This document shows, one piece after another, positions 997 to 51,205 of a DNA stretch of 64,000 nucleotides. How positions within the stretch are numbered: the stretch's first letter is position 1; every line of letters starts with the position of its first letter. Under the pieces are notes generated by a model. The model saw nothing but the letters and a program-made list of their open reading frames with translations, was not told where the DNA came from and searched no databases. The DNA is from Deltaproteobacteria bacterium RBG_16_49_23 (GTDB lineage Bacteria > Desulfobacterota > BSN033 > UBA1163). The stretch is from positions 6,711-70,710 of the forward strand of contig MGQQ01000144.1 in the NCBI GenBank assembly GCA_001798855.1, in the 5' to 3' direction. The position numbers and the translations under genes are program-made.

Positions 997-1040
997 TCGC
1001 TTTGATCCATTTTTCCCAAAAACTGGAAATATCAGAAAAC

Positions 1041-1517
1041 CTATACCGATTTCAGGGTGAAAAACCCACCATCCTTGCACCAAAGGAGAGGGGAATTGCC
1101 CATATCCTTCTGACTTGTCACCTTACCGATAAAGAGATGGTAGTCGCTAATATCGTAGCGAGTTGTAACCTGGCATTCAAACCAGGCTGAGGATCCTTTC
1201 GGGACCGGAGGCTTTCCAGGCTCTCCGGAAACGGTTTCAAAAGTGATCTCTTTAACCTTCTCTTCTCCGCTCATGCTTCCCATTCTTAAAGCCAATTCCT
1301 TCTGAGTCCCAGAAGCAAGGACGAGGGTGAATCTCCCTGATCCCTCGATCAGCTCGGAGGTAAGATGCCCCTTTGCCAGACTCACTGCCAAAAGGGGCTC
1401 GGTTTCTGAAATTACAAAGGCTGTAGCCGTCATGATGTCCATTTTCCCTTGGTAAGCCGTACTCACAAAAACGACTGGACAAGGAAGTTGATAAGAGGCC
1501 CAATTTACTTTGAACAT
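1041..1517 (-). CDS. flavin reductase-like FMN-binding domain protein
   Basis: PCPVVFVSTAYQGKMDIMTATAFVISETEPLLAVSLAKGHLTSELI..GRFTL is the typical flavin_reduct/flavoredoxin pattern. Length is about 160 aa. Confidence 0.7.
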   Translation of the reverse strand: MFKVNWASYQLPCPVVFVSTAYQGKMDIMTATAFVISETEPLLAVSLAKGHLTSELIEGSGRFTLVLASGTQKELALRMGSMSGEEKVKEITFETVSGEPGKPPVPKGSSAWFECQVTTRYDISDYHLFIGKVTSQKDMGNSPLLWCKDGGFFTLKSV

Positions 1518-1720
1518 AGCTCCTTCCTCCTTTGAAGAAATATTTCTAACATTATAACAAACACCCTCCCCATTTTAAACATTTCCTTTATAGGATTCCG
1601 TGTGTCGCTTCCACGCGACTCTCTTGAGAAGAGGAATGATTCGGGCCGTGTTCCCCGTGGCAAGGCTCAGAAAATGTTTTATGTTGATTACCTTCATAAT
1701 TTAACATACCATACCTTAAG

Positions 1721-3022
1721 ATGAAGCCCAAGGGGGGAGTTCGATTGAAGAAAAACACCATCATTTTGATATCAACATTAGATACGAAAGGCTCCGAGGC
1801 CGCTTTTCTGAAAAGCCTGATTCAAGGAAGAGGCCATCGGGTCATTCTTCTCGATACCAACACGGGGGGGGAACCCTCTATACCCCCTGATATTTCTGCT
1901 AAAGAAGTTGCCAAGGATGGTGGATGGAATATTGAAGAAGTGAGAAAGATGAAAGGGACAGGTAAGGTCGCCTCGATCATGATTGATGGCGCCATTAAGA
2001 AAGTCAAGACCCTTTTGGAAAAGGGAGAGCTTCATGGGATCATTTCCTTCGGAGGAGCGAGCAATACAGCGATCGCAACAGCCATCATGAAATCCCTTCC
2101 CTTTGGGATCCCTAAAGTCATGCTCTCGAGTATGGCTGCCGTCCCCGCTTATGCAGGAGGGTATTTCGGCACAAAGGATATCGCTATCTTCCATTCAGTA
2201 GTGGACGTTGTAGGATCTAATCCCTTTGTCGAAGATGTATTAAAACGAGCAGCGGGGGCGATCTGCGGAATGGTGGAAATGGGAGGAGGACTTGCCTCTC
2301 TTTCCAAAACCACTCATAAAAAAGATTTGATCGCCTTAACGGAGTTTAAATTTTCAGAGGAATGCTGTTCTCACATCAGACATCTTTTAGAAGAAAAGGG
2401 ATTCGAAGTAATCCCTTTTCATGCCCAGGGAATGGGTGACAGGGCAATGGAGGATTTAATCGGAGAAGGGCTCTTCCAGGGAGTGATGGACATTGTCCCC
2501 GCAGGTGTCAGTGAAGAGCTATTAGGGGGAAACCGGGCCGCGGGTCCGAGTCGCTTGGAGAGAGCTGGAGAAATGGGAATTCCTCAAATCGTTACGCCTT
2601 GTGGATTTGATATGTTGAGCTGCGGGCCTTTGGAGAGAGGCGATCGGGGAGACCCCCTATGGATTTCAAAGGATATCAAGAATAGAAAACTTTTCATCCC
2701 GGACGCCTTCAGGGTTCAAGCCCGTACATATTCTCAAGAATTGAGGGAGATTGCGAGAGAGGTGGCCAGAAAATTAAATCAATCAAAAGGACCTGTCGCT
2801 ATGCTCATTCCATTAAAGGGATGGTCTTCTCTCGACAAGGAAGGAATGCCTCTCTATGATCCGGAGGCTGACAAAGCCTTTGTCCAAGAACTAAAAACGC
2901 ACCTCCATCCTAAGATCCCCCTCATTGAAATCGACCTTCACCTCAATACCCTTGAATTTGCCGAAGAAGCTGTGAAGCAATTTATCAAGCTTTACCCCGT
3001 TAGAAAATCTTCCACTTTCTGA
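1721..3022 (+). CDS. UPF0261 / Tm-1-like ATP-binding domain protein
   Basis: N-terminal IILISTLDTKGSE motif and a length of about 430 aa are typical of UPF0261. The last 10 codons and the stop lie inside MITE copy A1. Confidence 0.6.
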   Translation: MKPKGGVRLKKNTIILISTLDTKGSEAAFLKSLIQGRGHRVILLDTNTGGEPSIPPDISAKEVAKDGGWNIEEVRKMKGTGKVASIMIDGAIKKVKTLLEKGELHGIISFGGASNTAIATAIMKSLPFGIPKVMLSSMAAVPAYAGGYFGTKDIAIFHSVVDVVGSNPFVEDVLKRAAGAICGMVEMGGGLASLSKTTHKKDLIALTEFKFSEECCSHIRHLLEEKGFEVIPFHAQGMGDRAMEDLIGEGLFQGVMDIVPAGVSEELLGGNRAAGPSRLERAGEMGIPQIVTPCGFDMLSCGPLERGDRGDPLWISKDIKNRKLFIPDAFRVQARTYSQELREIAREVARKLNQSKGPVAMLIPLKGWSSLDKEGMPLYDPEADKAFVQELKTHLHPKIPLIEIDLHLNTLEFAEEAVKQFIKLYPVRKSSTF

Positions 3023-3118
3023 CGGGAAAGCTCACGCGGGGCATTAAACCCAGTGTTCGCTGAAAAAGGAACAGCCATCCTCCCCGCTTCGAGCCGCGGG
3101 GTTTTCTAACGGGGTAAA
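2991..3118. mobile_element. MITE-like element, family A copy 1 (divergent)
   Basis: Terminal inverted repeats TTTACCCCGTTAGAAA ... TTTCTAACGGGGTAAA with internal GCGGGG/CCCCGC hairpins. Related to the copies at 29063, 32577 and 45906. Confidence 0.7.
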
Positions 3119-3136
3119 GAGATCTTTATGAAGGGG

Positions 3137-4042
3137 TCATGGCAGTGGCGGAACCAATTCTTTTTTCAACTCCTTCACCATCTTCAGAAAGGCTTCGCTC
3201 GGAGGGGAGAGAGATTTTTCGCTGTGGTAGATGAGATCGGTAAAGAAAATGATATTCCCCTCTTCAAGGGAAATGACTTTTAAGGTTCCCTTCTCCAATT
3301 CCTCTTTGATGTCAGGCTCAAACATGAAGGAAACCCCTTTATTCTGCTTCACGTATCCCACTATAAAGTCCAAACTACTTGCCTCCATAATCACCGATGG
3401 CCAAATCCCATATTCCTGAAATTTTCTCAGAACGGCTGCTCTTGAACCGGATCCCTTCTCCCTCAAAATCACCGATTCACCATTCAGTTCTCTCAGAGAG
3501 ATACTCTTCCTCTGTGAGAACCTGTGTTCAGGTGAGGCAACCAGAACAAACTCTACTGTTGAGAAAAAGAGGGATTTGATTTTTCGATCCAGATTAAGCT
3601 GGGAGATAAGGGCTAATTCATTTTTCTTCTCGAGGACGCTCTTGGCCATATCCTCGGAATTCCCTTCATCTAAGATGACTTTGATACGCGGGTATCTTCT
3701 CTGAAACTCGGAGAGCAAGGAAGGCATGATGTAGCGGGCATAATTTTTCGTTGCTCCAATTTGAAGAGTCCCTCTCATCAATTTCTTGAAATCCCTCATC
3801 TTCTCGTTGGCATCAGATACAAGTTCGAAAATCTTCTCTGCATATTGGTAGAGAAGCTCTCCCGCTTCGGTTAACTGCATTCTTTTCCCAACTTGTTGAA
3901 TGAGTTTTAAATTCAATGATTTTTCAAAGGATTTGACCTGGATCGTCACAGCAGGTTGGGTGACATTTAATTCTTCCGCCGCCCGAGTAAAACTCTTTCT
4001 CTTGATAACTAAATAAAATGCTTCCAACTGTCTGAGATTCAA
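3137..4042 (-). CDS. LysR family transcriptional regulator
   Basis: N-terminal HTH MNLRQLEAFYLVIKRKSFTRAAEELNVTQPAVTIQVKSFE plus a substrate-binding domain of about 200 aa. Divergent from the 4374-15903 array. Confidence 0.9.
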   Translation of the reverse strand: MNLRQLEAFYLVIKRKSFTRAAEELNVTQPAVTIQVKSFEKSLNLKLIQQVGKRMQLTEAGELLYQYAEKIFELVSDANEKMRDFKKLMRGTLQIGATKNYARYIMPSLLSEFQRRYPRIKVILDEGNSEDMAKSVLEKKNELALISQLNLDRKIKSLFFSTVEFVLVASPEHRFSQRKSISLRELNGESVILREKGSGSRAAVLRKFQEYGIWPSVIMEASSLDFIVGYVKQNKGVSFMFEPDIKEELEKGTLKVISLEEGNIIFFTDLIYHSEKSLSPPSEAFLKMVKELKKELVPPLP

Positions 4043-4090
4043 AAATCCTCCTAAATCAATAACTAAGATTATTTAACACGCAAATAAGGA

Positions 4091-4144
4091 CCACCCCCCT
4101 CCCTCACCCTCCCCCTCTGAGGGGGGAGAGGCGGGGTGGGGGTG
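4091..4144. repeat. GC-rich hairpin repeat (GGGAGAGG family)
   Basis: CCACCCCCCTCCCTCACCCTCCCCCTC-TGA-GGGGGGAGAGGCGGGGTGGGGGTG is a near-perfect palindrome. Confidence 0.75.
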
Positions 4145-4288
4145 CTTATTTTCATGCTTCGTAGTGCCCATGTGGGGCATGGAGATTTGGATAGAAAAAT
4201 CATAAAATTAATGTACTAAAACCCTTTGAAATAAAAGAGTTTTACGGATTACTATAAGTTTTTTTTATGGTATTATAAGAATAATTAC

Positions 4289-4302
4289 ATTGACTTGTCA
4301 AT
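4289..4302. promoter_or_regulatory. perfect dyad ATTGAC-TT-GTCAAT, candidate LysR operator
   Basis: 6-bp inverted arms in the AT-rich divergent control region between the LysR gene and the first array gene. Confidence 0.3.
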
Positions 4303-4373
4303 TCTTTAAAATGTAGTTTTTATTACATACTAACTTATAATTGAAAATTATCGTTAGGAAAGGAGAGAAAATT

Positions 4374-5990
4374 ATGCCCCAATATGATGGCATTATCATT
4401 GGTGGTGGGCCAAACGGACTCACTTTAGGTTGCTACCTGGCCAAGGCAGGGCTCAAGATTCTTATTTTAGAGAAGAGATACGAAATGGGAGGAGGCCTCT
4501 GCTCAGAGATGATCACCATCCCAGGCTTCATCCACAATACCCATGCGATCTACCATCCCATGGTGGATTACGCTCCGGTCTTTGCAGATCTCCAATTAGA
4601 TCAAACCTACGATCTGAAATATATCCATCCCGAAGTCGTCATGGCTATGCCCTTCTTGGACGGTAGGAGTCTCTGTATCTACTCTGACGTGGAGAGGACA
4701 TGCTCATCCTTCGCCCAATTTTCAAAGAAAGACGCAGATGCCTATCGGGATACTTATAAACGGTTTAAGGGATATGTAGACGCATTTCTTGGACCCGCCA
4801 CTTACGATATGGCCAAACCAGCCATTGAACAGGTGATTAAACTCCACTCTAAACCATTAGGTCAAGAGATCAGTGTACTTTCTGAAAAAAAACCGATCGA
4901 TATCATCCATGGGATTTTTGAAAATAATCAAGTCAGAACATTGATGCTATATGTTACGTGTATGTGGGGATTGGATTATGACTTAGAAGGACTCGGGTAC
5001 CTCGTTCCCCTCATGGTCAATCGAGCCGCAAATTACAGGCTCTGTATGGGTGGCTCCCACCACATGGCCAATTTGATGTCAAAATTTCTCTACCGACACA
5101 GAGGGATGATTTTGGGGAGTCAGATCATCAAGAGAATTATTGTCGAAAACGGGACTGCAAAAGGCGTTGAATTAGACGATGGAACGGTTTATGAGGCAAC
5201 GAAATTTGTTGCCTCCAGCATCGATCCTTATCAAACCTTCCTGAAGTATATCGGAGAGAAGAACCTCTCAAAAGATTTTGTTACGCGGACAAAGGACTGG
5301 AAATGGGAAAAATGGTCCCTCTTTGATGTCCACCTTGCGCTTTTTAACGCACCCCAATTTGTTGCTGCCGCTTCGAACCCCGATCTGAATAAAGCCTTTA
5401 TTTATGTTCTCGGATTTGAGACGGAAGAGAATCTGATCGATCATTTTAAAGCCTTAAAAAATGGAGAGATCAAGCCATCCGGATTCAACTGCTGCTTCCC
5501 AACCGTTTTCGATCCCTCAGAAGCGCCTCCAGGGAGACACACCGGTTTAATATCAGAACATGCACCTTACCGTTTGAAGGAAGGGGGCCCCGAGAGATGG
5601 TATAAGATCCGTCAAGAACATGCCAAAGAGCTCATCGATAAGCTCAAAAAATATGCACCCAACATGAGTGAGGACAACATCCTCTGGACCTACATCGCCT
5701 CTCCCCTCGATATCGAAAACAAATTCGCGGATATGGTGGAGGGATCGATTAAACAGGGAGGTTACTACCCTCTTCAAATGGGATATCTCAGACCGAATGA
5801 ACTTTGTTCTCAATACGCAACGCCCATTAAAAATCTCTACCTTTGTGGCGCTTCCACTTTCCCTGGAGGCCTGGTCACCTATGGCGCAGGATATAATGCG
5901 GCCAATCGAATTGCTCAGGATCTCGCAATTAATAAGTGGTGGAAAGAACCTGAGATCGTGACGAAGGCAAAGGCAGAAGGTTTGTTATAG
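4374..5990 (+). CDS. FAD-dependent oxidoreductase, phytoene desaturase (CrtI/COG1233) family, paralog 1
   Basis: Dinucleotide-binding motif [44 protein letters not shown] Shine-Dalgarno sequence before the ATG at 4374. About 540 aa. Confidence 0.8.
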
Positions 5991-6000
5991 GAGGTCAAAG

Positions 6001-6237
6001 ATGAAAGTCAATTCGACAGGTTTGGGCCAGACAACGATGACTGCGGCCTTTACCCAGCTTCTCAAAGATCCGGATGGAGGGGACACCTTAAAATTGAAGA
6101 TCGAGTCTTCAGAACCCATCCATTGGGTGATTACAGCTACTCTGGAAGGAGCGGACCTGAGGAACTTCATCAAGCTCCTCATTAAACCCTCTATCCTCTA
6201 TTATGCCATTGCGTTGATGATGAAAAAAAAGAAATAG
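6001..6237 (+). CDS. small hypothetical protein (78 aa) between the two CrtI-family paralogs
   Basis: GGAGG Shine-Dalgarno sequence 6 nt upstream. Spacing is tight: 10 nt after the upstream stop and 16 nt before the next start. Hydrophobic, Lys-rich C-terminus. Confidence 0.5.
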   Translation: MKVNSTGLGQTTMTAAFTQLLKDPDGGDTLKLKIESSEPIHWVITATLEGADLRNFIKLLIKPSILYYAIALMMKKKK

Positions 6238-6253
6238 AAAAGGAGGAAACCCC

Positions 6254-7921
6254 ATGCCGGATACAAGTTATGATGCGATTGTTATTGGCGGAGGACACCA
6301 CGGGACGATCATTGCCTGCTATTTGCAACACGCAGGTCTCAAAACATTGGTCTGCGAACGTCAACATGAATTAGGGGGAGGTGCCTGCGGTGAAGAGCTT
6401 CCCCTACCCGGATTTATCCAGAATACATGCGCCCACTTCACCCGCGTCTGGACCCACCCAGTTTACACCGACTTCAATCTGAGGGAATATGGTCTAAAAT
6501 ATATCTTCCCGGAACAGAATGAAGGGATGGTTTATCCGGATGGAACCTGTTTTGTCGGTTACTCAGCCTGGAAGGTAATCGATCCTGTAACGGGAAAAGA
6601 AGAACTTTCGAATGAAAATGTGAAGAAGACCTATAACGAGATCGCCCGCTTCTCCAAAACGGATGCGGAGACCTACCTCGATATCCTCGGAAAATATCAG
6701 AGAAAGTGGAGGGCTGCTTTTCGGGAATATCGTTATAGTCCTCCCACGCCGTGGGGAGTCAAAAATGCCCTTGAAAAACTCTGCGGTGATCCTGTGGATG
6801 GAATTGATCCTGTTTATCAATTCATGACAGGCTCCCAGATCGCCAAAGACCTTTTTGAAAGCCCTGAACTCCAGTGCCTCTTTATGAGGGCCATCGAAAC
6901 CTCAACAGGCTGCTTCCCCGGCGATGTGATTGGCCTCTATGTTTTTGTCCATGTGATTGCCCTCACCCTTTCTTTTGAGTCTGTCTCCATTGTGATCGGT
7001 GGAACCCACACCATCACACATGCCCTCCAGAGGGCCTTCAGCGCCATGGGAGGGGAGTTCTGTGTGGAAACCGAAGTGGATAAAGTTCTTGTTGAGAATG
7101 GAAGAGCCAAAGGGGTCAAACTTTCGAATGGGATAGAGGTTGAAGCAAAACAGTTGGTGGTCAGTGATTTAGGGATCCCCCAGACTATCTTCAGGCTTTT
7201 AGGAGAAAATCATGTGACACCAAAGGTTGCACGGCGCATACGAAATATCCGGTATGACCGCAGCCAGATTTATTGGGGAAATATGGCCATGCACGAACTC
7301 CCCAAATATAAAGCGGTCTCCTTCAATCCAGATATAGGCAGTCAACCTCGACTCTACATGGGAGATAAAGACCCTGAATACCTCTCCTGGAAATACCAGG
7401 CGGACATCTTTACCAAGGGATTCCCTGAAAAGTGGTATATGCTCGCCGCCCCAGACTCCATCTGGGACAAGACCCGGGCGCCTGCGGGAAAACACACTAT
7501 TTTGGTTGAAGAATTCGCCCCCCCCCTTCACCTCTTTTCCGAGAGACAATGGCTCAAAATGAAGAAAGAGGTGGAAGATTTAATGTTGAAACAGTGGCAG
7601 ATCTATGCCCCCAATATGACCCGTGACAATGTCATTGAGGCCTTCATTACCACCCCCTATGATACAGTCATGCGAAACATCGACATGCTGGAAGGAGGTT
7701 GGGCCGAGGGGGCCATGTTTGCTTCCCAGGCCGACCGATTCAGACCCATTCCAGACCTCTCGGGCTATCGTCTTCCCTTTCTCAAAAATATGTATATCTG
7801 CTCTTCCAACATGCATTCCGGAGGCGGCATTGCTCGAGGCTCCAGTTACAATTGCTTCAAGGTCATTGCAGAAGACTTCAAGTTAGAGAAACTCTGGGAG
7901 ATAAAAGGAAGAGCTTATTAA
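6254..7921 (+). CDS. FAD-dependent oxidoreductase, phytoene desaturase (CrtI/COG1233) family, paralog 2
   Basis: YDAIVIGGGHHGTIIACYLQHAGLKTLVCERQHELGGG. It aligns by eye with paralog 1 along its length. AAGGAGG Shine-Dalgarno sequence. Confidence 0.8.
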   Translation: MPDTSYDAIVIGGGHHGTIIACYLQHAGLKTLVCERQHELGGGACGEELPLPGFIQNTCAHFTRVWTHPVYTDFNLREYGLKYIFPEQNEGMVYPDGTCFVGYSAWKVIDPVTGKEELSNENVKKTYNEIARFSKTDAETYLDILGKYQRKWRAAFREYRYSPPTPWGVKNALEKLCGDPVDGIDPVYQFMTGSQIAKDLFESPELQCLFMRAIETSTGCFPGDVIGLYVFVHVIALTLSFESVSIVIGGTHTITHALQRAFSAMGGEFCVETEVDKVLVENGRAKGVKLSNGIEVEAKQLVVSDLGIPQTIFRLLGENHVTPKVARRIRNIRYDRSQIYWGNMAMHELPKYKAVSFNPDIGSQPRLYMGDKDPEYLSWKYQADIFTKGFPEKWYMLAAPDSIWDKTRAPAGKHTILVEEFAPPLHLFSERQWLKMKKEVEDLMLKQWQIYAPNMTRDNVIEAFITTPYDTVMRNIDMLEGGWAEGAMFASQADRFRPIPDLSGYRLPFLKNMYICSSNMHSGGGIARGSSYNCFKVIAEDFKLEKLWEIKGRAY

Positions 7922-7932
7922 AGAAACAATAC

Positions 7933-8036
7933 AAAATGATCAATTAGCAATTCGCAATGATCAATGGAGACCCACAGAAGAGGAAACACCCATTAACTGA
8001 CCAATGCAAAATGGTCGATGAGCAATGCTCAATTGG
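7933..8036. repeat. CAATGATCA/ATTGG-rich intergenic repeat (family E)
   Basis: AATGATCAATTAGCAATTCGCAATGATCAATGG ... CCAATGCAAAATGGTCGATGAGCAATGCTCAATTGG. Related blocks lie at 15281, 57306 and 62223. Confidence 0.55.
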
Positions 8037-8057
8037 ACCGCATAGAAAGGGAGATAG

Positions 8058-8810
8058 ATGAGACTCAAGGATAAAGTGGCCGTCGTCACAGGGGCTGCCA
8101 AGGGCCTGGGAAAAGAATTCTCTATCGGTATGGCAAAAGAGGGGGCCAAAATCATGGCTGTCACCCGCAGGGATCTCACCAACCTGGAGAAAACCGTTAA
8201 GGAGATTGAAGTCTTGGGCGGATTGGCGAAAGCTCTCCAGGCTGATGTCTCTATTGAAAAGGATGCGATCAAGATCGCCGAAGAAACATTTAAGTCCTTT
8301 GGCAGGATCGATATCTTAGTCAATTGTGCCGCTATCTACGACGGATTGGTTCGAAAATTTTTCACGGAGATAGATCCCAACGAATGGGATCAGGTGATGG
8401 CCGTGAACGTCAAAGGCCCCTGGCTATGCACAAGGGCTGTATTTCCTTATATGAAACAACAGGGAAAAGGAAAGATTGTCAATCTCTCTTCTGAAGTATT
8501 TTTTACGGGGTCCCATGGTTTGATCCACTATGTGTCCTCTAAGGGAGGGGTAATCGGGTTAACCCGGGCCCTTGCCATTGAATTAGGGCCATATAATATT
8601 AACATTAATACCGTTGCGCCAGGATTTACAGATACAGAGGCAAGTCGTCATCTCGCCGATGTGACTAAATACGATGTGAGTAAAACTCCTTTAAGACGAC
8701 TGGAACAACCCAATGATCTTCTCGGCGCTGTCATCTTCCTCGCATCCGATGAAAGCAATTTCATTACCGGGCAAACCATTTTAGTAGATGGTGGAAGGGC
8801 AATGCATTAG
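8058..8810 (+). CDS. short-chain dehydrogenase/reductase (FabG-like SDR)
   Basis: TGAAKGLG cofactor motif, NCAA motif and the catalytic S...YVSSK motif. 250 aa. Confidence 0.9.
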   Translation: MRLKDKVAVVTGAAKGLGKEFSIGMAKEGAKIMAVTRRDLTNLEKTVKEIEVLGGLAKALQADVSIEKDAIKIAEETFKSFGRIDILVNCAAIYDGLVRKFFTEIDPNEWDQVMAVNVKGPWLCTRAVFPYMKQQGKGKIVNLSSEVFFTGSHGLIHYVSSKGGVIGLTRALAIELGPYNININTVAPGFTDTEASRHLADVTKYDVSKTPLRRLEQPNDLLGAVIFLASDESNFITGQTILVDGGRAMH

Positions 8811-8985
8811 CCCTTTCAGTTATCCTCCGGCTGCTTAATGCTATTTCAGGTAGTCACATTTCATCTTTGGCACGATGAGGGCGTTTTAGGTGGGGCTTCC
8901 TCTTACCCTGTTCACGCTGTGGTGCAACTCCATACGAAATCAACTTTATCACACAAATGAATAACAAACGGAGGATGCTTAAAGG

Positions 8986-11631
8986 ATGCACGAGATTAAT
9001 TTTACTCTAAACGGTATTCCAAAAAAGGTGATCGCTGATCCCCGGAAAAGCTTACTCAAAGTGATTCGGGAGGATCTCGGGCTAACCGGAACGAAAGAAG
9101 GGTGTTCAGCAGGACACTGCGGTACCTGTGCTGTGATCATGGATGGTGAAGTCGTCCTCGCCTGTAGGGTCCCTGTGGCTAAAACCCAGGGCAAAGAGAT
9201 CACGACCATAGAGGGTATCGGCACCCTCAAAAATCCTCATCCCCTTCAATTAGCCTTTGCAAAAACAGGAGCCATCCAGTGCGGCTTCTGTACACCAGGG
9301 ATGATCGTTCGGGCTAAGTCCATTTTGGACAAAAATCTTGATCCCTCAAGAGACGAAATAAGGAGGGCTCTTCAACCCCATATCTGCCGTTGTACCGGTT
9401 ATCAAAAGATCTTTGAGGGGATTGAACTGGCAGCCTCGTATCTACGGGGAAAAACAAAATCCATCGAATTAAAACTGACCGGGAAAGGGACGGTTGGCCA
9501 ACCTGTCACCCGACCGGACGCACTCGAAAAGGCTACAGGAACAACCCTCTACGCCGCTGACCTCGCTGTGGACGGATGTGCTCACATCAAGGTTTTAAGA
9601 AGCCCTCATCACCACGCTAAAATCGTTCATATTGAGAAGGCAGAAGCGGAAGCGATTCCTGGAGTCCTCGCTGTGCTCACTGCCGAGGATGTGAAAGGAA
9701 CAAATATTTTGAAGATGGCCGGTGATGACCAACCCATCTTATGTGGAAATAAAGTTCGCTTTATTGGAGACCCCGTGGCTGCTGTTGTGGCGAACTCTGA
9801 GGAAATAGCCTCTTACGCCATCGAGAAGATTGAAGTCACTTATGAACCCTTAGAATCAGTCCTCACTCCTGAGGAAGCATTGAAGGAAGGCGCCATAAAG
9901 GTCCACGATGATCGATCCAATCTCTTTTTCGAACAACCCATTATCCATGGTGATATGAAGAAGGGTCTTTCAGAGTCGGAGGTGGTGGTTGAGAAAACCT
10001 ACACAACGCAATCCGTTGAACATGCCTATCTCGAGAACGATGCCGGCGTTGCCTATCTCCATGAGAATGGGCAATTGATCATTATGTCTGCAAGCCAGAA
10101 CATCCATGCCCACCGAAAAACCATTGCAGAGGGTTTGGGCCTCAGTCTGGACAAAGTACGGGTCATTCAAACCCCTACAGGAGGAGCGTTTGGAGGAAAA
10201 TTAGATGTCTCCGTAGGTGGAATTCTCGGTTTGACTGCTCTAAAACTGAAAAGGCCGGTGAAGCTTGTCTATACGAGGAGCGAAACCTTTGCAGTTACCC
10301 CGAAACGCCACCCCTTCTTGATGAAGGTGAAAGTGGGGGCCAAAAAAGATGGAACCTTGATGGCATTGGATTTTGATCTCACGGCAGATGGTGGGGCCTA
10401 TAAATCATTCAGCAACAGTGTGACGCAGCGAGGCATTATCCATTCCCAGGGACCCTATCGCTTTCCGAATGCACATGCTTATGGAAAAGCAGTTTATACC
10501 AATACAGCTTTCAAGGGAGCCATGAGAGGCTTTGGCGCACCCCAGGTTGCTTTTGCGATCGAGTCGATTCTCGATGAGCTGGCTATTGAATTAAAAATGG
10601 ACCCCTTAGCCCTCAGGATGGAAAACGGCTTTGTGAAAGGAGATACGACGATCTGTGGCCAAGTGTTAGATCACGCAATCGGATTCCAAGAATGTATGGA
10701 GACTCTAAAACCTTTTTATGAGAAAGCGCTCAAACAAGCCAAAGCAAACATCACCAATGAAATCAAACAGGGTGTTGGTTTAGGAGGGGTTTGGTTCGGT
10801 CCAGGGCGGAGCGCCCCAGATCAATCTGAGGCGTGGGCAGAACTTCTTCCTGATGATACCTTACAGATTTGGATCGCAGCATCGGATATGGGACAGGGGA
10901 CAAATACGATGTTCTGGCAGATCGCTGCAGAGACCATGGGATTTCCATTGGAAAAGGTCAAAGTCTTTACGACCGACACGGAGATCACACCGGATGGGAA
11001 CTTTTCCGCCGGGAGCCGTCAGACCTATGTATCAGGAAGAGCTGTACAGATGGCTGTGGCAGAATTGAAAAGAGCCATGGAGGAAAAAGGGGTAAAGACA
11101 TACAGCGAGATGAAGGTGAAAGGTTTACCTACTCTTTATAAAGCAATCAATAAGCCTGTAACATCAAGGCCTGATCCCAAGACCGGTCAAGGTGTGCCAT
11201 GGGAAACCTATTCCTTTGGAATCCAGATGGCTGAAGTATCCGTCGAGATAAAGACAGGCAAGGTCACTGTCCTCAAGATCACCTCCGTCCATGACCTTGG
11301 AACAGTGATCAATATCCAAAATGTGGAGGGCCAGCTCCATGGTGGCATCTATATGGGGCTCGGATATGCCCTCATGGAAGAGTTTGTGTATACGAAGACC
11401 GATAGCTTCGCTAAATTTAAAGTCCCGAGAGCCAAAGACATGCCAGAGATGGAAGTGATCACTCTCAATATTCCAAGAGAAAAAGGACCCTTTGGAGCTT
11501 CGGGTACTGCCGAATATGCGGATGTCCCCACGGCACCAGCCATCGCTAATGCTATCTATAATGCATGCGGTGTTCGTATTCGAGATTTACCCATTACTCC
11601 AGAAAAGATCATTAAGCTTTGCAAACTTTAA
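8986..11631 (+). CDS. molybdopterin-dependent aldehyde oxidoreductase-like protein with fused N-terminal 2x[2Fe-2S] domains (xanthine dehydrogenase family, MOP-type architecture)
   Basis: CSAGHCGTCAV...C (plant-type 2Fe-2S), then QCGFCTPGM...CRCTGYQKI (second 2Fe-2S), then an a/b-hammerhead and molybdopterin-binding region of about 700 aa. No FAD domain or FAD subunit gene nearby. Confidence 0.85.
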   Translation: MHEINFTLNGIPKKVIADPRKSLLKVIREDLGLTGTKEGCSAGHCGTCAVIMDGEVVLACRVPVAKTQGKEITTIEGIGTLKNPHPLQLAFAKTGAIQCGFCTPGMIVRAKSILDKNLDPSRDEIRRALQPHICRCTGYQKIFEGIELAASYLRGKTKSIELKLTGKGTVGQPVTRPDALEKATGTTLYAADLAVDGCAHIKVLRSPHHHAKIVHIEKAEAEAIPGVLAVLTAEDVKGTNILKMAGDDQPILCGNKVRFIGDPVAAVVANSEEIASYAIEKIEVTYEPLESVLTPEEALKEGAIKVHDDRSNLFFEQPIIHGDMKKGLSESEVVVEKTYTTQSVEHAYLENDAGVAYLHENGQLIIMSASQNIHAHRKTIAEGLGLSLDKVRVIQTPTGGAFGGKLDVSVGGILGLTALKLKRPVKLVYTRSETFAVTPKRHPFLMKVKVGAKKDGTLMALDFDLTADGGAYKSFSNSVTQRGIIHSQGPYRFPNAHAYGKAVYTNTAFKGAMRGFGAPQVAFAIESILDELAIELKMDPLALRMENGFVKGDTTICGQVLDHAIGFQECMETLKPFYEKALKQAKANITNEIKQGVGLGGVWFGPGRSAPDQSEAWAELLPDDTLQIWIAASDMGQGTNTMFWQIAAETMGFPLEKVKVFTTDTEITPDGNFSAGSRQTYVSGRAVQMAVAELKRAMEEKGVKTYSEMKVKGLPTLYKAINKPVTSRPDPKTGQGVPWETYSFGIQMAEVSVEIKTGKVTVLKITSVHDLGTVINIQNVEGQLHGGIYMGLGYALMEEFVYTKTDSFAKFKVPRAKDMPEMEVITLNIPREKGPFGASGTAEYADVPTAPAIANAIYNACGVRIRDLPITPEKIIKLCKL

Positions 11632-11830
11632 AAAGGGCGAGGGTTGTCGAGCTCGAAAATTAACTTGATTTCTTTCTTTCCTGTCAGTAGTATAGTCATA
11701 CTTTTAAGACGAGGTATCCCATCACAGAAAGGAGGTGTAGGCAGAATTTGGATGAAAGTTTGGTTCAGTCTGATCGGGGGGAAAATGGAATATATCTTTA
11801 GAGCTGCGAAACTTTAAAGGAGGTGGGAGA

Positions 11831-13516
11831 ATGAAATTTTATGATGTGGTCCCCGGACTTGATTTTATGGAGGAGTACGATTTAGAACAATCACCTGCTT
11901 GGTTTCTCGATGCCACCCACTCTGTGCCCCCATGGACGCCTATGTTCGGATGGTTTTGGATCAATTTCTGTCGGCATGGAATGCAGTATGGCGCTGAAAC
12001 CCTCTCCCTTCCCACGGTGAAAGGATGGGACTGGCGTTTTAAAGATGGGGGTGGATATCTAACCCTTCTCATGGTCACCTCCGACCAGGAGAAAGCAGAA
12101 AGGGAGAAGAAGTTTAGAGAAGCGATCCGTCCCTTCGTAGAAAACTATGATGGTCTTTGGGGTGGATATGTTAAGGAAATACTGAAAAGATATGAGAGTT
12201 TAAAGGCCCTTGATGTCAATACTGCGTCGAATATCAAACTTCTTGAGAACTTCGAGGAGACAATCGATACCTGTCGAAGGATGTGGGAAATCCATATGCA
12301 CATGATGTATGGGACTTATACACCCTACGTCCTCTTTGAGCAACTCTGTATGCAGTTGTTGAAAATCGATGACACCCATCCTACTTTTCATAAATTAGTG
12401 GCCGGTTTTGACAATGAAAGTTTTCGAGTGGACCGCAGGCTCTGGGAGTTCTCAAAAAAGGCTAAGGATATGGGGCTCGAAAGTCTCTTTATGGAGACAC
12501 CCTCAAAGCAGATGAAGACTAAATTAGGAGAGAGTGATAAAGGAAAGAAATTTTTGAAGGAGTTCGACGAATTCCTTGAAAAGGAAGCAGGCTGGAGGAT
12601 GGAGCGAATGGCTGAGATCAATGTCCCCACCTGGCAGGAGGACCCAACGCCCGGTTTCGAAACGGTAAAAATGTACCTAAAGAAAGGTGGGGAATTCGAC
12701 TTAGACCAGGACCGTAAGAAGATTGAAAAGGAACGGAAAGATACAGAAAAAGAGGTCTTGGCCAAGATTGCTCCCGAACAAAAGAGCTGGTTCTCCATGT
12801 TGATGAAGGTGGCTCAAAATTGCAGCCGCTTCAGTGAGGAGCACAACCATTATCTCGATCTTTACACCCATGCCTTGATGAGAAGATCCTGTATGGGATT
12901 GGGAAATCGATTCGCCAAATGCGGAGCGATCAGTCAACCTGATGATATTTTCTTCCTCATGCCCGATGAGGTGAGAAAGGCTGGGATTAATCCGGACAAA
13001 CTCAATCTCAAACCCATTGCCCAGCGTCGACGGAAAGAATGGGAAGGATGGAACCAGAGGGACAATCCTCCTGCCATCTTTAAAGAGGGGTTTACTTTGG
13101 AAATGGCGATTGGAGGATTGGTCCAATCTCTTGATCCCATCGCCCTTAAGGTGGTGGTGGGAAGCATGCCTGTGCCAAAACCTGAACTCAAGGCAGACCT
13201 CTTGGGGACGTGCGGCTCTTCAGGTGTGGCAGAAGGAATTGCTCGGGTTGTCCTTAGGGATGAAGACTTACCAAACATTCAAAAAGGAGATATCCTTGTT
13301 GCGATGAGCACCTCTCCTGCCTGGACGCCCGTATTCAGTATGATCAATGGGGTTGTGGTGGATCGAGGGGCGAGCCTCTCCCATGCCGCTATTGTGGGTA
13401 GGGAGTATGGCATCCCTGTGGTCATGAATGTTTTTACGGGAACTCAAGCAATCAAGTCCGGCCAAAGGATTCGTGTCGACGGCAATCTGGGGGCCGTTTA
13501 TATTCTGGATAAATAG
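11831..13516 (+). CDS. PEP-utilising enzyme mobile (His-swivel) domain protein, phenylphosphate synthase alpha-like
   Basis: C-terminal GSSGVAEGIARVV...GDILVAMSTSPAWTPVF...VVDRGASLSHAAIVGREYGIPVV carries the phospho-His motif. The N-terminal domain of about 430 aa is of unknown function. GGAGGTG Shine-Dalgarno sequence. Confidence 0.8.
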   Translation: MKFYDVVPGLDFMEEYDLEQSPAWFLDATHSVPPWTPMFGWFWINFCRHGMQYGAETLSLPTVKGWDWRFKDGGGYLTLLMVTSDQEKAEREKKFREAIRPFVENYDGLWGGYVKEILKRYESLKALDVNTASNIKLLENFEETIDTCRRMWEIHMHMMYGTYTPYVLFEQLCMQLLKIDDTHPTFHKLVAGFDNESFRVDRRLWEFSKKAKDMGLESLFMETPSKQMKTKLGESDKGKKFLKEFDEFLEKEAGWRMERMAEINVPTWQEDPTPGFETVKMYLKKGGEFDLDQDRKKIEKERKDTEKEVLAKIAPEQKSWFSMLMKVAQNCSRFSEEHNHYLDLYTHALMRRSCMGLGNRFAKCGAISQPDDIFFLMPDEVRKAGINPDKLNLKPIAQRRRKEWEGWNQRDNPPAIFKEGFTLEMAIGGLVQSLDPIALKVVVGSMPVPKPELKADLLGTCGSSGVAEGIARVVLRDEDLPNIQKGDILVAMSTSPAWTPVFSMINGVVVDRGASLSHAAIVGREYGIPVVMNVFTGTQAIKSGQRIRVDGNLGAVYILDK

Positions 13517-13517
13517 A

Positions 13518-14570
13518 ATGCCTCAAAAACGAAACAAATTTATCATCTGGTTTAAGGATTGTTCAGGAAAAGATATACCACGGGTCGGTGGGAAAAATGC
13601 CAATCTTGGAGAAATGTTAAAAATGGATCTAAGGGTCCCTCCGGGATTCGCAGTGACCACCCAGGCATTCGATGCCTTTTTGGATAAAGGGAGGGTTCGA
13701 AACCAGATCGTGAGGACCCTCCCTCAACTCCAATTCGATGACATCAAAGCCCTGGAGAAAGCGGGACGCCAGATTCGGGACCTCATTGAATCAACTCCGA
13801 TTCCAAAAAAGATTGTAGAAGAGATTAAAGAAGCCTATAGAGAATTAGCCAACCTCTGCAGGGTCCCGGATCTTCCCGTTGCTGTTCGGTCCAGTGCCAC
13901 CTCCGAAGATCTGAAGACAGCCAGTTTCGCCGGGCAGCATGAATCCTATCTCTGGATCAGGGGCGGCGAGGAAGTAGTCCGCCATATATTGAAATGCTGG
14001 GCAAGCCTGTTTACGGATCGCGCCATTGCCTACCGGAACCAGGTCGGATGGCCTCACGACAAAGTCACCATCAGCGTTGGTGTTCAGAAAATGGTCAAAG
14101 CGAAATGTGCCGGAGTCATGTTTACCATAGATCCGGTCATCGGAGATGAGAGTAAGATTGTGGTGGAAGGCAATTGGGGATTAGGCGAAAGTGTGGTCAA
14201 AGGAGAGGTTTCTCCTGATCACTTCATTGTGGATAAGCAATCCTCTGAGATTTTAGAGAAGACCGTCGCTTTTAAATTACTCTGCTATCAGCTGGAGGGA
14301 AATAAGGTGGTTTGCTCACCCCCCTCCTCTGAAAAACAAAATCAGCTCTGCTTAAGTGACGAGGAGTTAGTCGAAATCGTTCGGTTGGGTAAAATCTCAG
14401 AGGCCCATTACCAATCCGCTCAGGATCTCGAGTGGGCCATCGATATCGACCTCCCCTTCCCTGAGAACGTTTTTCTCGTTCAGACCCGCCCCGTCACGAG
14501 TTCAGGGAAACCCAAGAGAAGCGATGCCGATGTCATCATCGATATGATGTCTTCGCTTTTCAGAAGGTAA
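13518..14570 (+). CDS. PEP/pyruvate-binding (PPDK_N ATP-grasp) domain protein, phenylphosphate synthase beta-like
   Basis: VGGKNANLGEMLK...VAVRSSATSEDL...SFAGQHESYL is typical of the PEP synthase N-terminal nucleotide-binding domain. The ATG at 13518 follows the upstream TAG by 1 nt. Confidence 0.8.
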   Translation: MPQKRNKFIIWFKDCSGKDIPRVGGKNANLGEMLKMDLRVPPGFAVTTQAFDAFLDKGRVRNQIVRTLPQLQFDDIKALEKAGRQIRDLIESTPIPKKIVEEIKEAYRELANLCRVPDLPVAVRSSATSEDLKTASFAGQHESYLWIRGGEEVVRHILKCWASLFTDRAIAYRNQVGWPHDKVTISVGVQKMVKAKCAGVMFTIDPVIGDESKIVVEGNWGLGESVVKGEVSPDHFIVDKQSSEILEKTVAFKLLCYQLEGNKVVCSPPSSEKQNQLCLSDEELVEIVRLGKISEAHYQSAQDLEWAIDIDLPFPENVFLVQTRPVTSSGKPKRSDADVIIDMMSSLFRR

Positions 14571-14604
14571 GTGGGTGGCCCATGTATCGACGATGGGAGG
14601 AAAG

Positions 14605-15264
14605 ATGATTTTCTTATTCAATCAACACTGGGATATTATCCCGGGGAAAGAGGAAGAATACACAAAATTTGCTATCAATCACCATATCCCGACCCTGAAA
14701 AAGATAGGAATTAATCTTGTCGGTGGATTCCATGTGGTCATCGGAGAAGGACCCCGGATCATAGCGGTGGGAGCAGTCGATTCCTTCCAAAAGCTCCAGA
14801 AGGCCTTGGAGTCTGAAGAGTATGAATCCGTAACAGCCCAGATGAAACAATATGTTCTCAATTATTGTTGCCGGATTCTTAAGCCAACGGGGCGGGTAAA
14901 AATAACAAAATATAGTATTCAATTACGGGTATGGAAATTTAACCAATATTTTAATATCCTTCCTGGAAAAGAGAAGGAATACTCGGAGTTTATCATCAAA
15001 GATCATCTTCCGACCATGGAAAAACAGGGCATTAAAATGACTGGAGGCTGGCAAGTCGTGGTAGGAGCCGGCCCTTCGATTGTGGCAGAGGGGACAGCAG
15101 GTAGTCTAACCGAGATTGCGAAAGCCATTGATAGCGATGAGTATAGACGAATCACAAATATTCTTACCTCGACCTATGTGACTGATTACAGTAGCCGTAT
15201 TCTGGCTCCCACAGGGCGTATCGAACTCCCTTATATATTGAATAGAATGATGAGAGGGTTTTAA
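14605..15264 (+). CDS. tandem-duplicated domain protein of unknown function (2 x about 105 aa)
   Basis: GGAGG Shine-Dalgarno sequence before the ATG at 14605. The two halves align: F.QHWDIIPGKEEEYTKF..HHIPTLKK.GI.LVGGFHVVIGEGPRI vs F.QYFNILPGKEKEYSEF..DHLPTMEKQGIKMTGGWQVVVGAGPSI. Both halves end in RIL.PTGR. Confidence 0.7.
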   Translation: MIFLFNQHWDIIPGKEEEYTKFAINHHIPTLKKIGINLVGGFHVVIGEGPRIIAVGAVDSFQKLQKALESEEYESVTAQMKQYVLNYCCRILKPTGRVKITKYSIQLRVWKFNQYFNILPGKEKEYSEFIIKDHLPTMEKQGIKMTGGWQVVVGAGPSIVAEGTAGSLTEIAKAIDSDEYRRITNILTSTYVTDYSSRILAPTGRIELPYILNRMMRGF

Positions 15265-15280
15265 AGAGGTTTGAGGTTTG

Positions 15281-15320
15281 AATTGAAAATTGATAACTGA
15301 CAATTGGTCATTGATCATTT
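15281..15320. repeat. CAATGATCA/ATTGG-rich intergenic repeat (family E)
   Basis: AATTGAAAATTGATAACTGACAATTGGTCATTGATCATT. Confidence 0.5.
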
Positions 15321-15903
15321 CCAGCCAGTGGTGATAAAACCGATCCATCAGAAAATTTTTGAAAAGGCTAAACCCTTCCTCCGAACCCGAAAGAATCTCA
15401 TTCACACTCGGGTCGCGCTCCGGTTTGCTTTAAAGCTTCTCCAACACGAAACGAGTGATGAAGAGGTTGTTATCCCTGCGATTCTTCTCCACGATGTGGG
15501 GTGGAATGCCGTCCCAAAAAACTTACATCTCACTGCTTTTGGTCCAAATCCATCCAATCCTGAGTTGACAAGGGTTCATGAAGTGGAAGGGGCAAAGATA
15601 ACCAAACACATTTTGGAAGCGGTGCACTATCCTCCTAAAAAAGTGGAGGAGATCTGTCGGATCATACGGGGTCATGATTCGAGAAAAAGACCCATCTCGT
15701 TCAATGACCGGATCGTTAAAGATGCGGATAAACTTTGGCGATATTCTCGAAAAGGTGTGGCTATTGAAACGGACCGGTTTAATATTTCACGTCAAGAATT
15801 TCTCACCTACTTGGAAGGGAAGATAGACCAATGGTTCCTAACGGCTACGGCCAAAAAGATGGCGAGACAGGAGATCTCTGAGAGAAACAATCCCTTGCCC
15901 TAA
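15304..15903 (+). CDS. HD domain phosphohydrolase
   Basis: Motifs LLHDVGW, RGHD and KDADKL. The start is uncertain because no ATG is available; the candidates are TTG at 15304 or GTG at 15329. Confidence 0.7.
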   Translation: MVIDHFQPVVIKPIHQKIFEKAKPFLRTRKNLIHTRVALRFALKLLQHETSDEEVVIPAILLHDVGWNAVPKNLHLTAFGPNPSNPELTRVHEVEGAKITKHILEAVHYPPKKVEEICRIIRGHDSRKRPISFNDRIVKDADKLWRYSRKGVAIETDRFNISRQEFLTYLEGKIDQWFLTATAKKMARQEISERNNPLP

Positions 15904-15940
15904 ACCCCTTTTCAGAATATACTGTTTAATAATCCAATTG

Positions 15941-16012
15941 CCCCCTCACACTCACCCTATCCCCTGCCTTCGCCGAAATGCTTCGTTCAGGCAGGCGCCG
16001 GGGGAGGAAGGA
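15941..16012. repeat. GC-rich hairpin repeat
   Basis: CCCTGCCTTCGCCGAAATGCTTCGTTCAGGCAGG hairpin flanked by CCCCCTCAC / GGGGGAGG arms. Confidence 0.6.
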
Positions 16013-16081
16013 GTAATTTGGGATATTTCTCCTTGATATAGAGAGAGGTGACTCATTCTGAAAAGATCAATCAGAGGTCTT

Positions 16082-24906: not shown

Positions 24907-25028
24907 CACCCCCACCCCTGCCTACCGGCAGGTAGGCTCACCCTCACCCCTCAAGGGAGAGGGGATATCAGTTCGATTCCTTAATTAAATTCCCTCTCCC
25001 CTCGCGGGAGAGGGTCAGGGTGAGGGGG
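24907..25028. repeat. GC-rich hairpin repeats
   Basis: CCCCTGCCTACCGGCAGGTAGG, CCCCTCAAGGGAGAGGGG and CCCTCTCCCCTCGCGGGAGAGGG. Confidence 0.7.
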
Positions 25029-51183: not shown

Positions 51184-51205
51184 TCGACTTGCCTCATTTT
51201 TTTCT

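Follow-up and report, generated by a model that had tools for sequence, protein, structure and literature searches.

Limonene dehydrogenase CtmAB of Castellaniella defragrans catalyses the water-dependent hydroxylation of an allylic methyl group (PMC4109377). The delta24-sterol desaturase of Sterolibacterium is the second characterised heterodimer of such architecture, and both enzymes carry the N-terminal consensus G-F-L/R-x-N/S-T/L-H-A, whose histidine bears covalent flavin mononucleotide in both subunits (PMC11061730). Here we describe a nine-gene array encoding a predicted enzyme of this type together with a split kinase, two further oxidoreductases and a phosphatase, found in a 64,000-nucleotide stretch of Deltaproteobacteria bacterium RBG_16_49_23 (contig MGQQ01000144.1, positions 6,711 to 70,710; hereafter, the window). 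Its conservation across genomes argues that the array is one real unit, a conserved and uncharacterised catabolic operon. Based on the gene content, domain families, intact catalytic motifs, synteny, conserved operator and promoter and replacement of the aldehyde enzyme that we observed, we propose that it serves the LysR-activated, ATP-dependent and O2-independent oxidative conversion of the methyl or alkyl side chain of a hydroxylated aromatic into a carboxyl group. This is a tentative reading that we favour while stopping short of calling it probable, with p-cresol as the best candidate substrate. A first-pass annotation of the same DNA had suggested ATP-driven activation and oxygen-independent oxidation of a hydroxylated, possibly aromatic or isoprenoid substrate; the general idea is supported here as a predicted function, but the genomic context favours an aromatic over an isoprenoid compound.

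The regulator gene and the nine plus-strand genes beside it (4374-15903 in the open reading frame (ORF) map) are the following:

3137-4042, minus strand: LysR-type transcriptional regulator with HTH_1 and LysR_substrate domains (Pfam), divergent from the array
4374-5990, plus strand: predicted subunit A of the CtmAB-type flavoenzyme, 538 amino acids (aa), with weak crtI_fam/CrtO matches below cut-off and an AlphaFold (AF2) model
6001-6237, plus strand: small ORF of 78 aa between A and B, from the ORF call
6254-7921, plus strand: predicted subunit B, 555 aa, with a weak CrtI-family match and the motif GFIQNTCAH
8058-8810, plus strand: classical short-chain dehydrogenase/reductase (SDR), Pfam adh_short, with TGAAKGLG and YxxxK motifs
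8986-11631, plus strand: MOP-type molybdenum (Mo) aldehyde oxidoreductase, 881 aa, from Pfam domains, NF045668 (832 bits) and a match to 1sij
11831-13516, plus strand: PpsA-like kinase alpha subunit, 561 aa, with a PEP-utilizers domain at aa 483-554
13518-14570, plus strand: PpsB-like kinase beta subunit, 350 aa, PPDK_N ATP-grasp (E 3e-109)
14605-15264, plus strand: NIPSNAP-like protein, 219 aa, with a NIPSNAP match and a duplicated NIPSNAP/ABM-like alpha+beta-barrel
15304-15903, plus strand: HD-domain phosphohydrolase, 199 aa, Pfam HD, with the HD residues at aa 63-64

These genes, the 331-bp control region and its dyad (4289-4302) all lie where the first-pass annotation had placed them, and its domain assignments are upheld by Pfam and NCBIfam.

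Public genomes and metagenomes yielded 247 related loci. We mapped the window proteins onto them and obtained, after dereplication, 142 distinct loci with an A homologue of at least 45% identity. Among the 79 of these that hold at least 9.5 kb downstream of A, to which all co-occurrence shares refer, B is present in 95%, the SDR in 91%, a PpsA-like protein in 84%, both kinase subunits in 76%, a divergent LysR gene upstream of A in 70%, the small ORF in 68%, the NIPSNAP-like protein in 65% and an HD or DUF89 phosphatase in 61%. A Mo- or tungsten (W)-type aldehyde oxidoreductase is found in at least 47%, a lower bound given that the loci end at about +11.6 kb. In the first set of 97 loci, used for counting small ORFs and aldehyde enzymes, the small ORF stands between A and B in 64. 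The hosts belong to five phyla, i.e., Thermodesulfobacteriota (Syntrophales, Desulfomonilales, Desulfobacterales, Desulfatiglandales, Syntrophorhabdales and Deferrisomatales), Bacillota (Thermincola, Peptococcaceae and Desulfosporosinus), Chloroflexota, Actinomycetota and Myxococcota (Anaeromyxobacter). With at least 142 distinct loci, the operon is spread over well over a hundred anaerobic bacterial species, and the nearest relatives (83-95% identity) are uncultured Syntrophaceae-like metagenome-assembled genomes (MAGs) from soil, peat, groundwater and digesters. Since the same gene set is co-localised across phyla, chance adjacency is ruled out, and the test of gene-neighbourhood conservation proposed in the first-pass annotation has a clearly positive outcome.

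Full-text literature searches returned no description of this gene cluster, with the genome paper on Syntrophorhabdus aromaticivorans UI by Nobu et al. 2015 outside the coverage, and together with the clear conservation of the gene neighbourhood this supports the earlier proposal of an undescribed system. The accompanying statement that the array maps onto no characterised pathway stands for the cluster as a whole, but half of it follows a logic known from the oxidation of limonene to perillic acid by CtmAB/GeoAB and of p-cresol to 4-hydroxybenzoate by the p-cresol methylhydroxylase (PCMH) pathway. All parts are of known families; new is their combination with a kinase of the phenylphosphate synthase (Pps)/rifampin phosphotransferase (Rph) type, a third small subunit and a cysteine-type B subunit.

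Similar to CtmAB, which acts together with GeoA/GeoB in Castellaniella, the window encodes two adjacent CrtI-fold (COG1233) paralogues with a mutual identity in the range of 27-29% (28.7% over 554 columns for A and B) and an N-terminal histidine motif in A; about 26-27% mutual identity is typical of this heterodimer class. The AlphaFold model of A (predicted local distance difference test score of 82) finds its best folds in gamma-carotenoid desaturase 4rep (template modelling score of 0.73) and then CrtI 4dgk, and the crtI_fam (TIGR02734) scores of 75.5 bits for A and 56 bits for B do not reach the cut-off of 238. Carotenoid or squalene biosynthesis was rejected as a function given these scores far under the cut-off, the catabolic context and the lack of synthase genes; as the first-pass annotation had noted, no phytoene or squalene synthase is encoded near the array within the window. 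Its two CrtI-family flavoenzymes are thus confirmed in their fold, but they resemble the CtmAB/delta24-sterol desaturase type acting on allylic C-H bonds and not carotenoid enzymes.

The flavinylation motif of A, GFIHNTHA at aa 51-58, has Ile at the published L/R position (Leu or Ile in homologues) and matches the consensus at its other positions, and the flavinylation histidine is kept in 89 of 91 homologues. In the corresponding B motif, GFIQNTCAH, Cys59 stands where the flavinylated histidine would be expected and is kept in around 74 of 81 B homologues, among them the Syntrophorhabdus, Thermincola and Chloroflexi proteins; B may carry a cysteinyl-flavin link. Given the two adjacent CrtI-fold paralogues and the flavinylation motif of A, we class the pair as a CtmAB/delta24-sterol desaturase-type covalent-flavin enzyme, a likeness of architecture and motif rather than of direct alignment; GTDB scans yielded neither a Castellaniella nor a Sterolibacterium locus, and the PDB has no entry for these enzymes. 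The 78-aa protein encoded between the two subunits has no Pfam match and 48 representatives among 1.84 billion proteins, and it is probably a third flavoenzyme subunit, as judged from its place in the operon.

An indirect link is that in 2014 the best match of both CtmA (CDM25290) and CtmB (CDM25289) was a protein of strain NaphS2 (PMC4109377). We observed in this naphthalene-degrading delta proteobacterium (4185-7638 of its locus) a B-like (30% identical) and an A-like gene (54%) whose order is reversed, with SDR genes next to them and no kinase there; the B-like protein belongs to a different subfamily and keeps a histidine at the flavinylation position. Furthermore, a Thermodesulfobacteriota MAG from a tar biofilm carries six CtmAB-like genes in tandem, two A-like and four B-like (993-13069 of its locus), which suggests that these enzymes have diversified to handle several substrates in a habitat contaminated with tar. 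Identity of the array with the recently published anaerobic benzene "Magic" cluster of ORM2 or with the BzS1 flavoprotein was considered and rejected, as the flavoproteins there are GlcDEF/VAO-like and accompanied by CoA transferases.

The Castellaniella enzymes carry out an O2-free, water-dependent sequence from methyl group via alcohol and aldehyde to acid (limonene, perillyl alcohol, perillyl aldehyde and perillic acid) that would be matched by the oxidoreductases of the window. Unlike CtmAB and GeoAB, the operon has the 78-aa protein between its flavoenzyme subunits, a cysteine-type B and no CtmEF ferredoxin system; it employs an SDR and a Mo aldehyde oxidoreductase rather than a medium-chain alcohol dehydrogenase and an aldehyde dehydrogenase; and it adds a kinase and a phosphatase. 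Its hosts are moreover strict anaerobes, whereas CtmAB depends on an acceptor of high potential. The delta24-sterol desaturase of Sterolibacterium denitrificans is of the same covalent-flavin type and belongs to a pathway that likewise comprises ATP-dependent phosphorylation, allylic oxidation and a Mo enzyme, but it desaturates instead of hydroxylating, and C26 hydroxylation in that pathway is performed by a Mo enzyme of another family.

The SDR has relatives in the Protein Data Bank (PDB) that include BbsD and (S)-1-phenylethanol dehydrogenase (2ew8, E 2e-44), and we infer that it is an alcohol dehydrogenase. The Mo enzyme combines two [2Fe-2S] domains with the Mo-cofactor domains in one polypeptide (Pfam Fer2, Fer2_2, Ald_Xan_dh_C and MoCoBD_1/2) and aligns end to end with Desulfovibrio gigas MOP (1sij, E 8e-182), a homologue that equally has two [2Fe-2S] domains, a Mo domain and no FAD domain. 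The FAD-containing medium subunit that the first-pass annotation had found missing is therefore normally absent from an enzyme of this type. Compared to D. gigas MOP, the window enzyme is embedded in a dedicated operon and scores 832.6 bits with the NF045668 equivalog, below its cut-off of 1100, making it a member of the MOP family by architecture and not a curated equivalog.

The aldehyde slot at the end of the operon is taken by a MOP-type Mo enzyme in 26 of the 97 loci of the first set, by a tungsten aldehyde:ferredoxin oxidoreductase (W-AOR) in 24, and by an NAD-dependent aldehyde dehydrogenase in Anaeromyxobacter. Aldehyde oxidation thus appears to be conserved by function and not by ancestry, and the occupation of one slot by three unrelated enzymes argues strongly for an aldehyde intermediate. 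An 837-aa ORF with Rph_4th and AFOR_C domains in a Chloroflexi MAG (6623-9136 of its locus) was considered as a functional fusion of kinase and aldehyde enzyme, which would have connected the substrate of the kinase with the aldehyde, and rejected as a deletion scar: its chimeric sequence joins PpsA-like residues 1-434 to W-AOR residues 196-605, the kinase having been lost by deletion.

Electron-transfer genes differ between lineages. The Anaeromyxobacter version has both subunits (alpha/beta) of an electron-transfer flavoprotein (ETF) and a membrane FeS/CCG protein beside the flavoenzyme, and the Chloroflexi version has ferredoxin and HdrA/BC-like genes; these partners point to an oxidative direction of the predicted pathway. 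The same Anaeromyxobacter locus (4324-16701) holds only a B-like flavoprotein (57% identical), with no A-like gene within the locus as covered, besides the kinase trio and genes for the aldehyde dehydrogenase, HD, SDR and UPF0261 proteins.

The kinase resembles phenylphosphate synthase PpsABC of Thauera aromatica and the rifampin phosphotransferase Rph in its split layout of an alpha subunit (substrate domain and histidine swivel), a beta ATP-grasp subunit and a small third protein. The C-terminal PEP-utilizers swivel is the only Pfam domain of alpha and keeps the catalytic histidine motif SHAAIV (His518). The best match of alpha is Listeria rifampin phosphotransferase (5fbs, residues 550-867, the rifampin-binding and histidine-swivel part), and alpha homologues carry Pfam Rph_4th. 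Compared to canonical PpsA, to which it is 24-25% identical, alpha is clearly distinct; its best PRK08296 sub-model score, 242 bits, falls far short of the cut-off of 578. Judged by domains and motifs, the enzyme is a kinase of the split phenylphosphate synthase/rifampin phosphotransferase type with an intact catalytic histidine, in line with the split dikinase related to phosphoenolpyruvate (PEP) synthase of the first-pass annotation. Different from PpsABC, it has oxidoreductases and not a carboxylase as its genomic partners, a canonical Pps stands separately next to it in relatives, and its third protein is NIPSNAP/ABM-like instead of a CBS-domain protein. The NIPSNAP-like protein follows PpsB in most loci and would be a third kinase component, the counterpart of PpsC. 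The kinase is accompanied by phosphatase genes, HD in the window and the DUF89 "damage-control phosphatase" or both elsewhere, with an HD paralogue in the phenol-type cluster of relatives. As these phosphatase genes travel with the kinase, the array suggests that a phosphate ester is formed and, at a later step of the same pathway, cleaved again.

Clues to the substrate come from the genes that adjoin the operon in other hosts. In Desulfomonilaceae-like genomes, the divergent LysR gene stands between the operon and a canonical phenol cluster of PpsA (993 bits versus a cut-off of 723, as in locus L042), PpsB, UbiD, a CoA ligase, UPF0261, a CBS protein and the HD paralogue, and this UbiD exceeds the cut-off of the phenylphosphate carboxylase beta subunit PpcB (505 vs 469 bits). 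Directly upstream of the operon in Peptococcaceae are PpsB, a PpcB-type UbiD (587 bits), a ligase, a HAD protein, UbiX and HD; the locus starts at PpsB, and any PpsA gene would fall beyond its edge. UbiD, UbiX and a CTP-dependent riboflavin kinase are found upstream in close Syntrophales relatives. By these assignments, UbiD neighbours of the phenylphosphate carboxylase type occur in three lineages and canonical phenylphosphate synthase in two, indicating an aromatic rather than an isoprenoid substrate. The window itself encodes no UbiD/UbiX (as the first-pass annotation had already noted), W-AOR, DUF89, ABM or CoA ligase in its 64 kb according to tblastn.

The operon is also present in the cultured syntroph S. 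aromaticivorans UI (NZ_KI867150.1, about 2.589-2.604 Mb), in the order UPF0261, divergent LysR, A, small ORF, B, DUF89, a second PpsA-like gene, SDR, ABM, PpsA-like, NIPSNAP-like and a PaaK-type ligase. The known substrates of strain UI are all aromatic and include p-cresol, the only one of them that needs methyl-to-carboxyl oxidation. Further downstream in Syntrophorhabdus, as well as beside kinase-less versions of the operon in Desulfosporosinus, lie biotin-dependent carboxylase genes.

The route that we propose would begin with phosphorylation of the substrate hydroxyl by the Pps/Rph-type kinase (alpha, beta and the NIPSNAP-like protein) at the expense of ATP, giving an aryl phosphate. The flavoenzyme of A, the small protein and B would then take a hydride or hydrogen from the methyl group, and addition of water would give the benzylic alcohol; loss of phosphate could be coupled to hydride removal and directly form a quinone methide. 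The SDR would convert the benzylic alcohol to the aldehyde and the MOP-type enzyme the aldehyde to the acid (4-hydroxybenzoate), the HD hydrolase (DUF89 elsewhere) would strip any remaining phosphate, and 4-hydroxybenzoate could then enter the 4-hydroxybenzoyl-CoA/benzoyl-CoA route. Hydroxylation of the CtmAB type has been argued to need a high-potential acceptor and to be unworkable in sulfate-reducing or methanogenic cells (PMC12583861). The proposed ATP coupling would answer this objection, and coupled phosphate loss could make methyl oxidation feasible with ETF, ferredoxin or menaquinone-level acceptors of strict anaerobes. We regard it as doubtful, though worth spelling out, that strict anaerobes and syntrophs hydroxylate p-cresol, and perhaps other alkylphenols, by this ATP-dependent principle in full, with an aryl phosphate, a three-subunit flavoenzyme with His- and Cys-linked flavin and phosphoester cleavage driving C-H oxidation.

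The PCMH pathway (PchCF/Pcm; Geobacter, Thauera and Aromatoleum) offers a parallel to the overall chemistry proposed here, from p-cresol via 4-hydroxybenzyl alcohol and aldehyde to 4-hydroxybenzoate with oxygen derived from water, and shares the genomic linkage to phenol genes. PCMH differs in being a VAO-family flavocytochrome c that uses high-potential acceptors and no ATP. No operon protein matched the VAO-type FAD-binding domain (Pfam), and the operon encodes no PCMH homologue.

Several points weigh against the oxidation of an aromatic side chain as we propose it. Substrate, order of steps, kinase target and energetic coupling are all inferred from the gene set. A phosphate ester of the phenol would hinder hydride abstraction from the para-methyl group unless P-O cleavage were concerted, and two ATP equivalents are a heavy expense for a syntroph, though phenol activation costs the same. 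The histidine at the flavinylation position has no counterpart in B, and the known relatives of A and B act on isoprenoids (limonene and the sterol side chain), not on aromatics. Only a remnant of the W-AOR gene is left in the Syntrophorhabdus loci of digester metagenomes, and the UI locus stops short of this place; strain UI may also have further substrates, and PCMH or hydroxybenzylsuccinate synthase may be encoded elsewhere in its genome. Finally, the window itself contains no aromatic-pathway genes, CoA ligase or electron-transfer partner.

Among the alternatives, a tertiary terpenoid or isoprenoid alcohol survives best, unlikely though we consider it. The kinase with the HD or NIPSNAP-like protein would here act as an ATP-dependent dehydratase that turns, e.g., alpha-terpineol, linalool or a 25-hydroxysteroid-like compound into an alkene, after which the flavoenzyme would hydroxylate the allylic methyl group and the SDR and aldehyde oxidoreductase would form the acid. 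The only characterised relatives of A and B, limonene dehydrogenase and delta24-sterol desaturase, fit this well, as do the MAGs from peat, soil and sediment, which are habitats rich in terpenoids. It would parallel the limonene-to-perillate route of Castellaniella and the conversion of the 25-hydroxy compound via 25-phosphate, delta24 alkene and 26-hydroxy compound to the 26-oate in Sterolibacterium, where a tertiary alcohol is phosphorylated with ATP and the phosphate eliminated before allylic hydroxylation (PMC7411048). The paper on this sterol kinase makes no mention of phenylphosphate or phosphoenolpyruvate and so offers no link to the Pps type (PMC7411048). Against a terpenoid substrate, the recurrent neighbours are UbiD genes of the phenylphosphate carboxylase type and phenol-catabolic genes, the operon has no linked CoA ligase, ring-cleavage or beta-oxidation gene of the kind known from terpene or steroid degradation, it occurs in strain UI with its exclusively aromatic known substrates, and a methanogenic limonene enrichment left limonene dehydrogenase-like genes unexpressed (PMC12583861).

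A longer-chain alkylphenol such as 4-ethylphenol would turn the same genes to another end, which we find improbable. The flavoenzyme would hydroxylate the benzylic methylene, the SDR would form 4-hydroxyacetophenone, and the kinase would phosphorylate the enol of this ketone for carboxylation or rearrangement. PEP synthase relatives do phosphorylate enolisable carbonyls (pyruvate in the case of PEP synthase), and the biotin-dependent carboxylases near some versions recall the XccABC step of the Aromatoleum p-ethylphenol pathway. The resemblance of the SDR to (S)-1-phenylethanol dehydrogenase would also fit, but FabG-type SDRs score better, and such a route has no aldehyde intermediate although an aldehyde enzyme from one of three families is conserved in the operon.

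It is very improbable that the pathway runs in the reductive direction as an electron sink, i.e., from acid to aldehyde (aldehyde oxidoreductase), alcohol (SDR) and a phosphate ester that the flavoenzyme would reductively remove to leave a methyl group. Phosphorylation does make a leaving group, the hosts are strict anaerobes, and Mo- and W-dependent aldehyde oxidoreductases are reversible with low-potential donors. However, the linkage to ETF and a quinone-linked membrane FeS protein favours oxidation, the NAD-dependent aldehyde dehydrogenase found as a replacement is effectively irreversible towards the acid, the adjoining carboxylase and CoA ligase genes are catabolic, and we know of no reductive acid-to-methyl pathway of such kind. 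That the genes are merely unrelated neighbours in separate transcription units, as four intergenic gaps of 136-199 bp (including the one after the HD gene) might suggest, is close to refuted by synteny, given that the set recurs with its order kept in five phyla, that the terminator scan found no plus-strand terminator-like sites in the gaps inside the array, that the PpsB-like start codon abuts the PpsA-like stop codon, and that operator and promoter are conserved.

The probable control of expression can be read from the 331-bp region between lysR and A (4043-4373) and from hairpins at both ends:

4265-4278, no strand assigned: TTAT-N6-ATAA, predicted LysR T-N11-A box, from the sequence and kept beside the dyad in about 40 loci
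4272-4301, minus strand: predicted lysR promoter TTGACA-18-TATAAT (sigma-70), 12 of 12 consensus positions, from the promoter scan
4290-4317, plus strand: probable operon promoter TTGACT-16-TGTAGT (TATAGT in relatives), from the sequence and a conserved TATAGT block
4092-4144, no strand assigned: GC-rich REP-like hairpin in the lysR leader, from inverted repeats, fold of -41 to -44 kcal/mol
15941-16012, plus strand: GC-rich REP-like hairpin after the HD gene, fold of -31 kcal/mol

The dyad ATTGACTTGTCAAT at 4289-4302 (ATTGAC-TT-GTCAAT), which the first-pass annotation had highlighted, is not significant by itself as a 6+6 repeat in an AT-rich spacer of this length. Yet TTGAC-NN-GTCAA recurs in the LysR-A spacer of around 40 of 58 related loci, even where LysR is only 36-38% identical and also in S. 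aromaticivorans UI (TTGACCTGTCAA); this recurrence argues for a real conserved site and rules out a chance palindrome. The aligned spacers share a block of TTAT-N6-ATAA, about 11 bp and then TTGAC-NN-GTCAA. The dyad is best read, most simply, as two back-to-back -35 hexamers, and possibly is a LysR activation site as well; the likely LysR recognition box is the neighbouring TTAT-N6-ATAA. This box overlaps the -10 element of the lysR promoter, and overlap of a LysR-type box with the -10 element of the regulator's own promoter is the classic layout of autorepression. A strong ribosome-binding site (4356-4367) precedes the ATG of A at 4374. Firmicute versions of the operon have a XylR_N/V4R regulator instead of LysR.

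The hairpin at 15941-16012 likely marks the 3' end of the operon. It belongs to a REP-like family (CCCTCACCCTnTCCCC ... GGGAGAGGG) with 10 copies in the window versus 0.44 expected by chance, of which those listed lie at 427, 4092-4144, 15941-16012, 25005-25026, 27574, 37822, 43552 and 48547-48568; the operon thus has a copy at either end, in the lysR leader and 3' of the HD gene.

On the other side of lysR lies a conserved neighbour with its own transcription unit:

1721-3022, plus strand: UPF0261 protein (Tm-1-like, ATP-binding) with Pfam UPF0261 N and C domains and a match to PDB 9mpy (E 3e-55)

A terminator-like hairpin follows this gene at 3082-3101 (terminator scan), and a UPF0261 gene is found somewhere in 42% of the dereplicated loci. 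UPF0261 accompanies the operon in loci L001, L004, L031, L097 and L183 as well, and in some relatives it is also found within the canonical phenylphosphate synthase/carboxylase cluster. UPF0261 may have a role in aryl-phosphate metabolism; PDB sequence searches with it and with the HD and NIPSNAP-like proteins offered no hint of function. The window opens with a CTP-dependent riboflavin kinase gene (DUF120; 57-383, plus strand), followed by a flavin reductase-like gene (1041-1517, minus strand). Since the riboflavin kinase gene follows UbiX and UbiD in two close Syntrophales relatives, the 5' edge of the window probably abuts a UbiD/UbiX (prenyl-FMN) carboxylase cluster.

Just downstream of the array are genes for a 603-aa multihaem cytochrome c (16082-17893, plus strand) and a putative esterase (17897-19255, minus strand). 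Both stand on the other side of the operon in a relative (locus L018) and are therefore counted as neighbours, not operon members. The cytochrome was checked as a PchC-like partner and rejected as electron acceptor: it is not syntenic with the operon in relatives and is missing from most loci. Further along (50365-57296, minus strand), an unrelated cluster encodes a beta-keto acid cleavage enzyme (BKACE), a branched-chain amino-acid-type ABC transporter and a class-III aminotransferase.

Anaerobic tyrosine breakdown yields p-cresol and phenol as its main aromatic end products, and both are also common pollutants. PCMH, the known anaerobic enzyme for methyl hydroxylation, depends on high-potential acceptors, and sulfate reducers are known to use fumarate addition instead. 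Older metabolite studies reportedly detected 4-hydroxybenzyl alcohol, aldehyde and acid in methanogenic p-cresol cultures, and to our knowledge the enzymes behind these metabolites have never been identified. The operon is a concrete candidate for them and is present in the one cultured p-cresol-degrading syntroph. If the proposed kinase coupling is true, it would be a new route to hard C-H oxidation at low redox potential, would mirror phenylphosphate carboxylation on the oxidative side and would supply the enzyme system that methanogenic p-cresol degradation has lacked; if our reading of the substrate holds, it would also extend the small CtmAB/delta24-sterol desaturase class from isoprenoids to aromatics. 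Whatever its substrate, the operon is among the more widespread uncharacterised catabolic modules of anoxic soils, peat, sediments and digesters.

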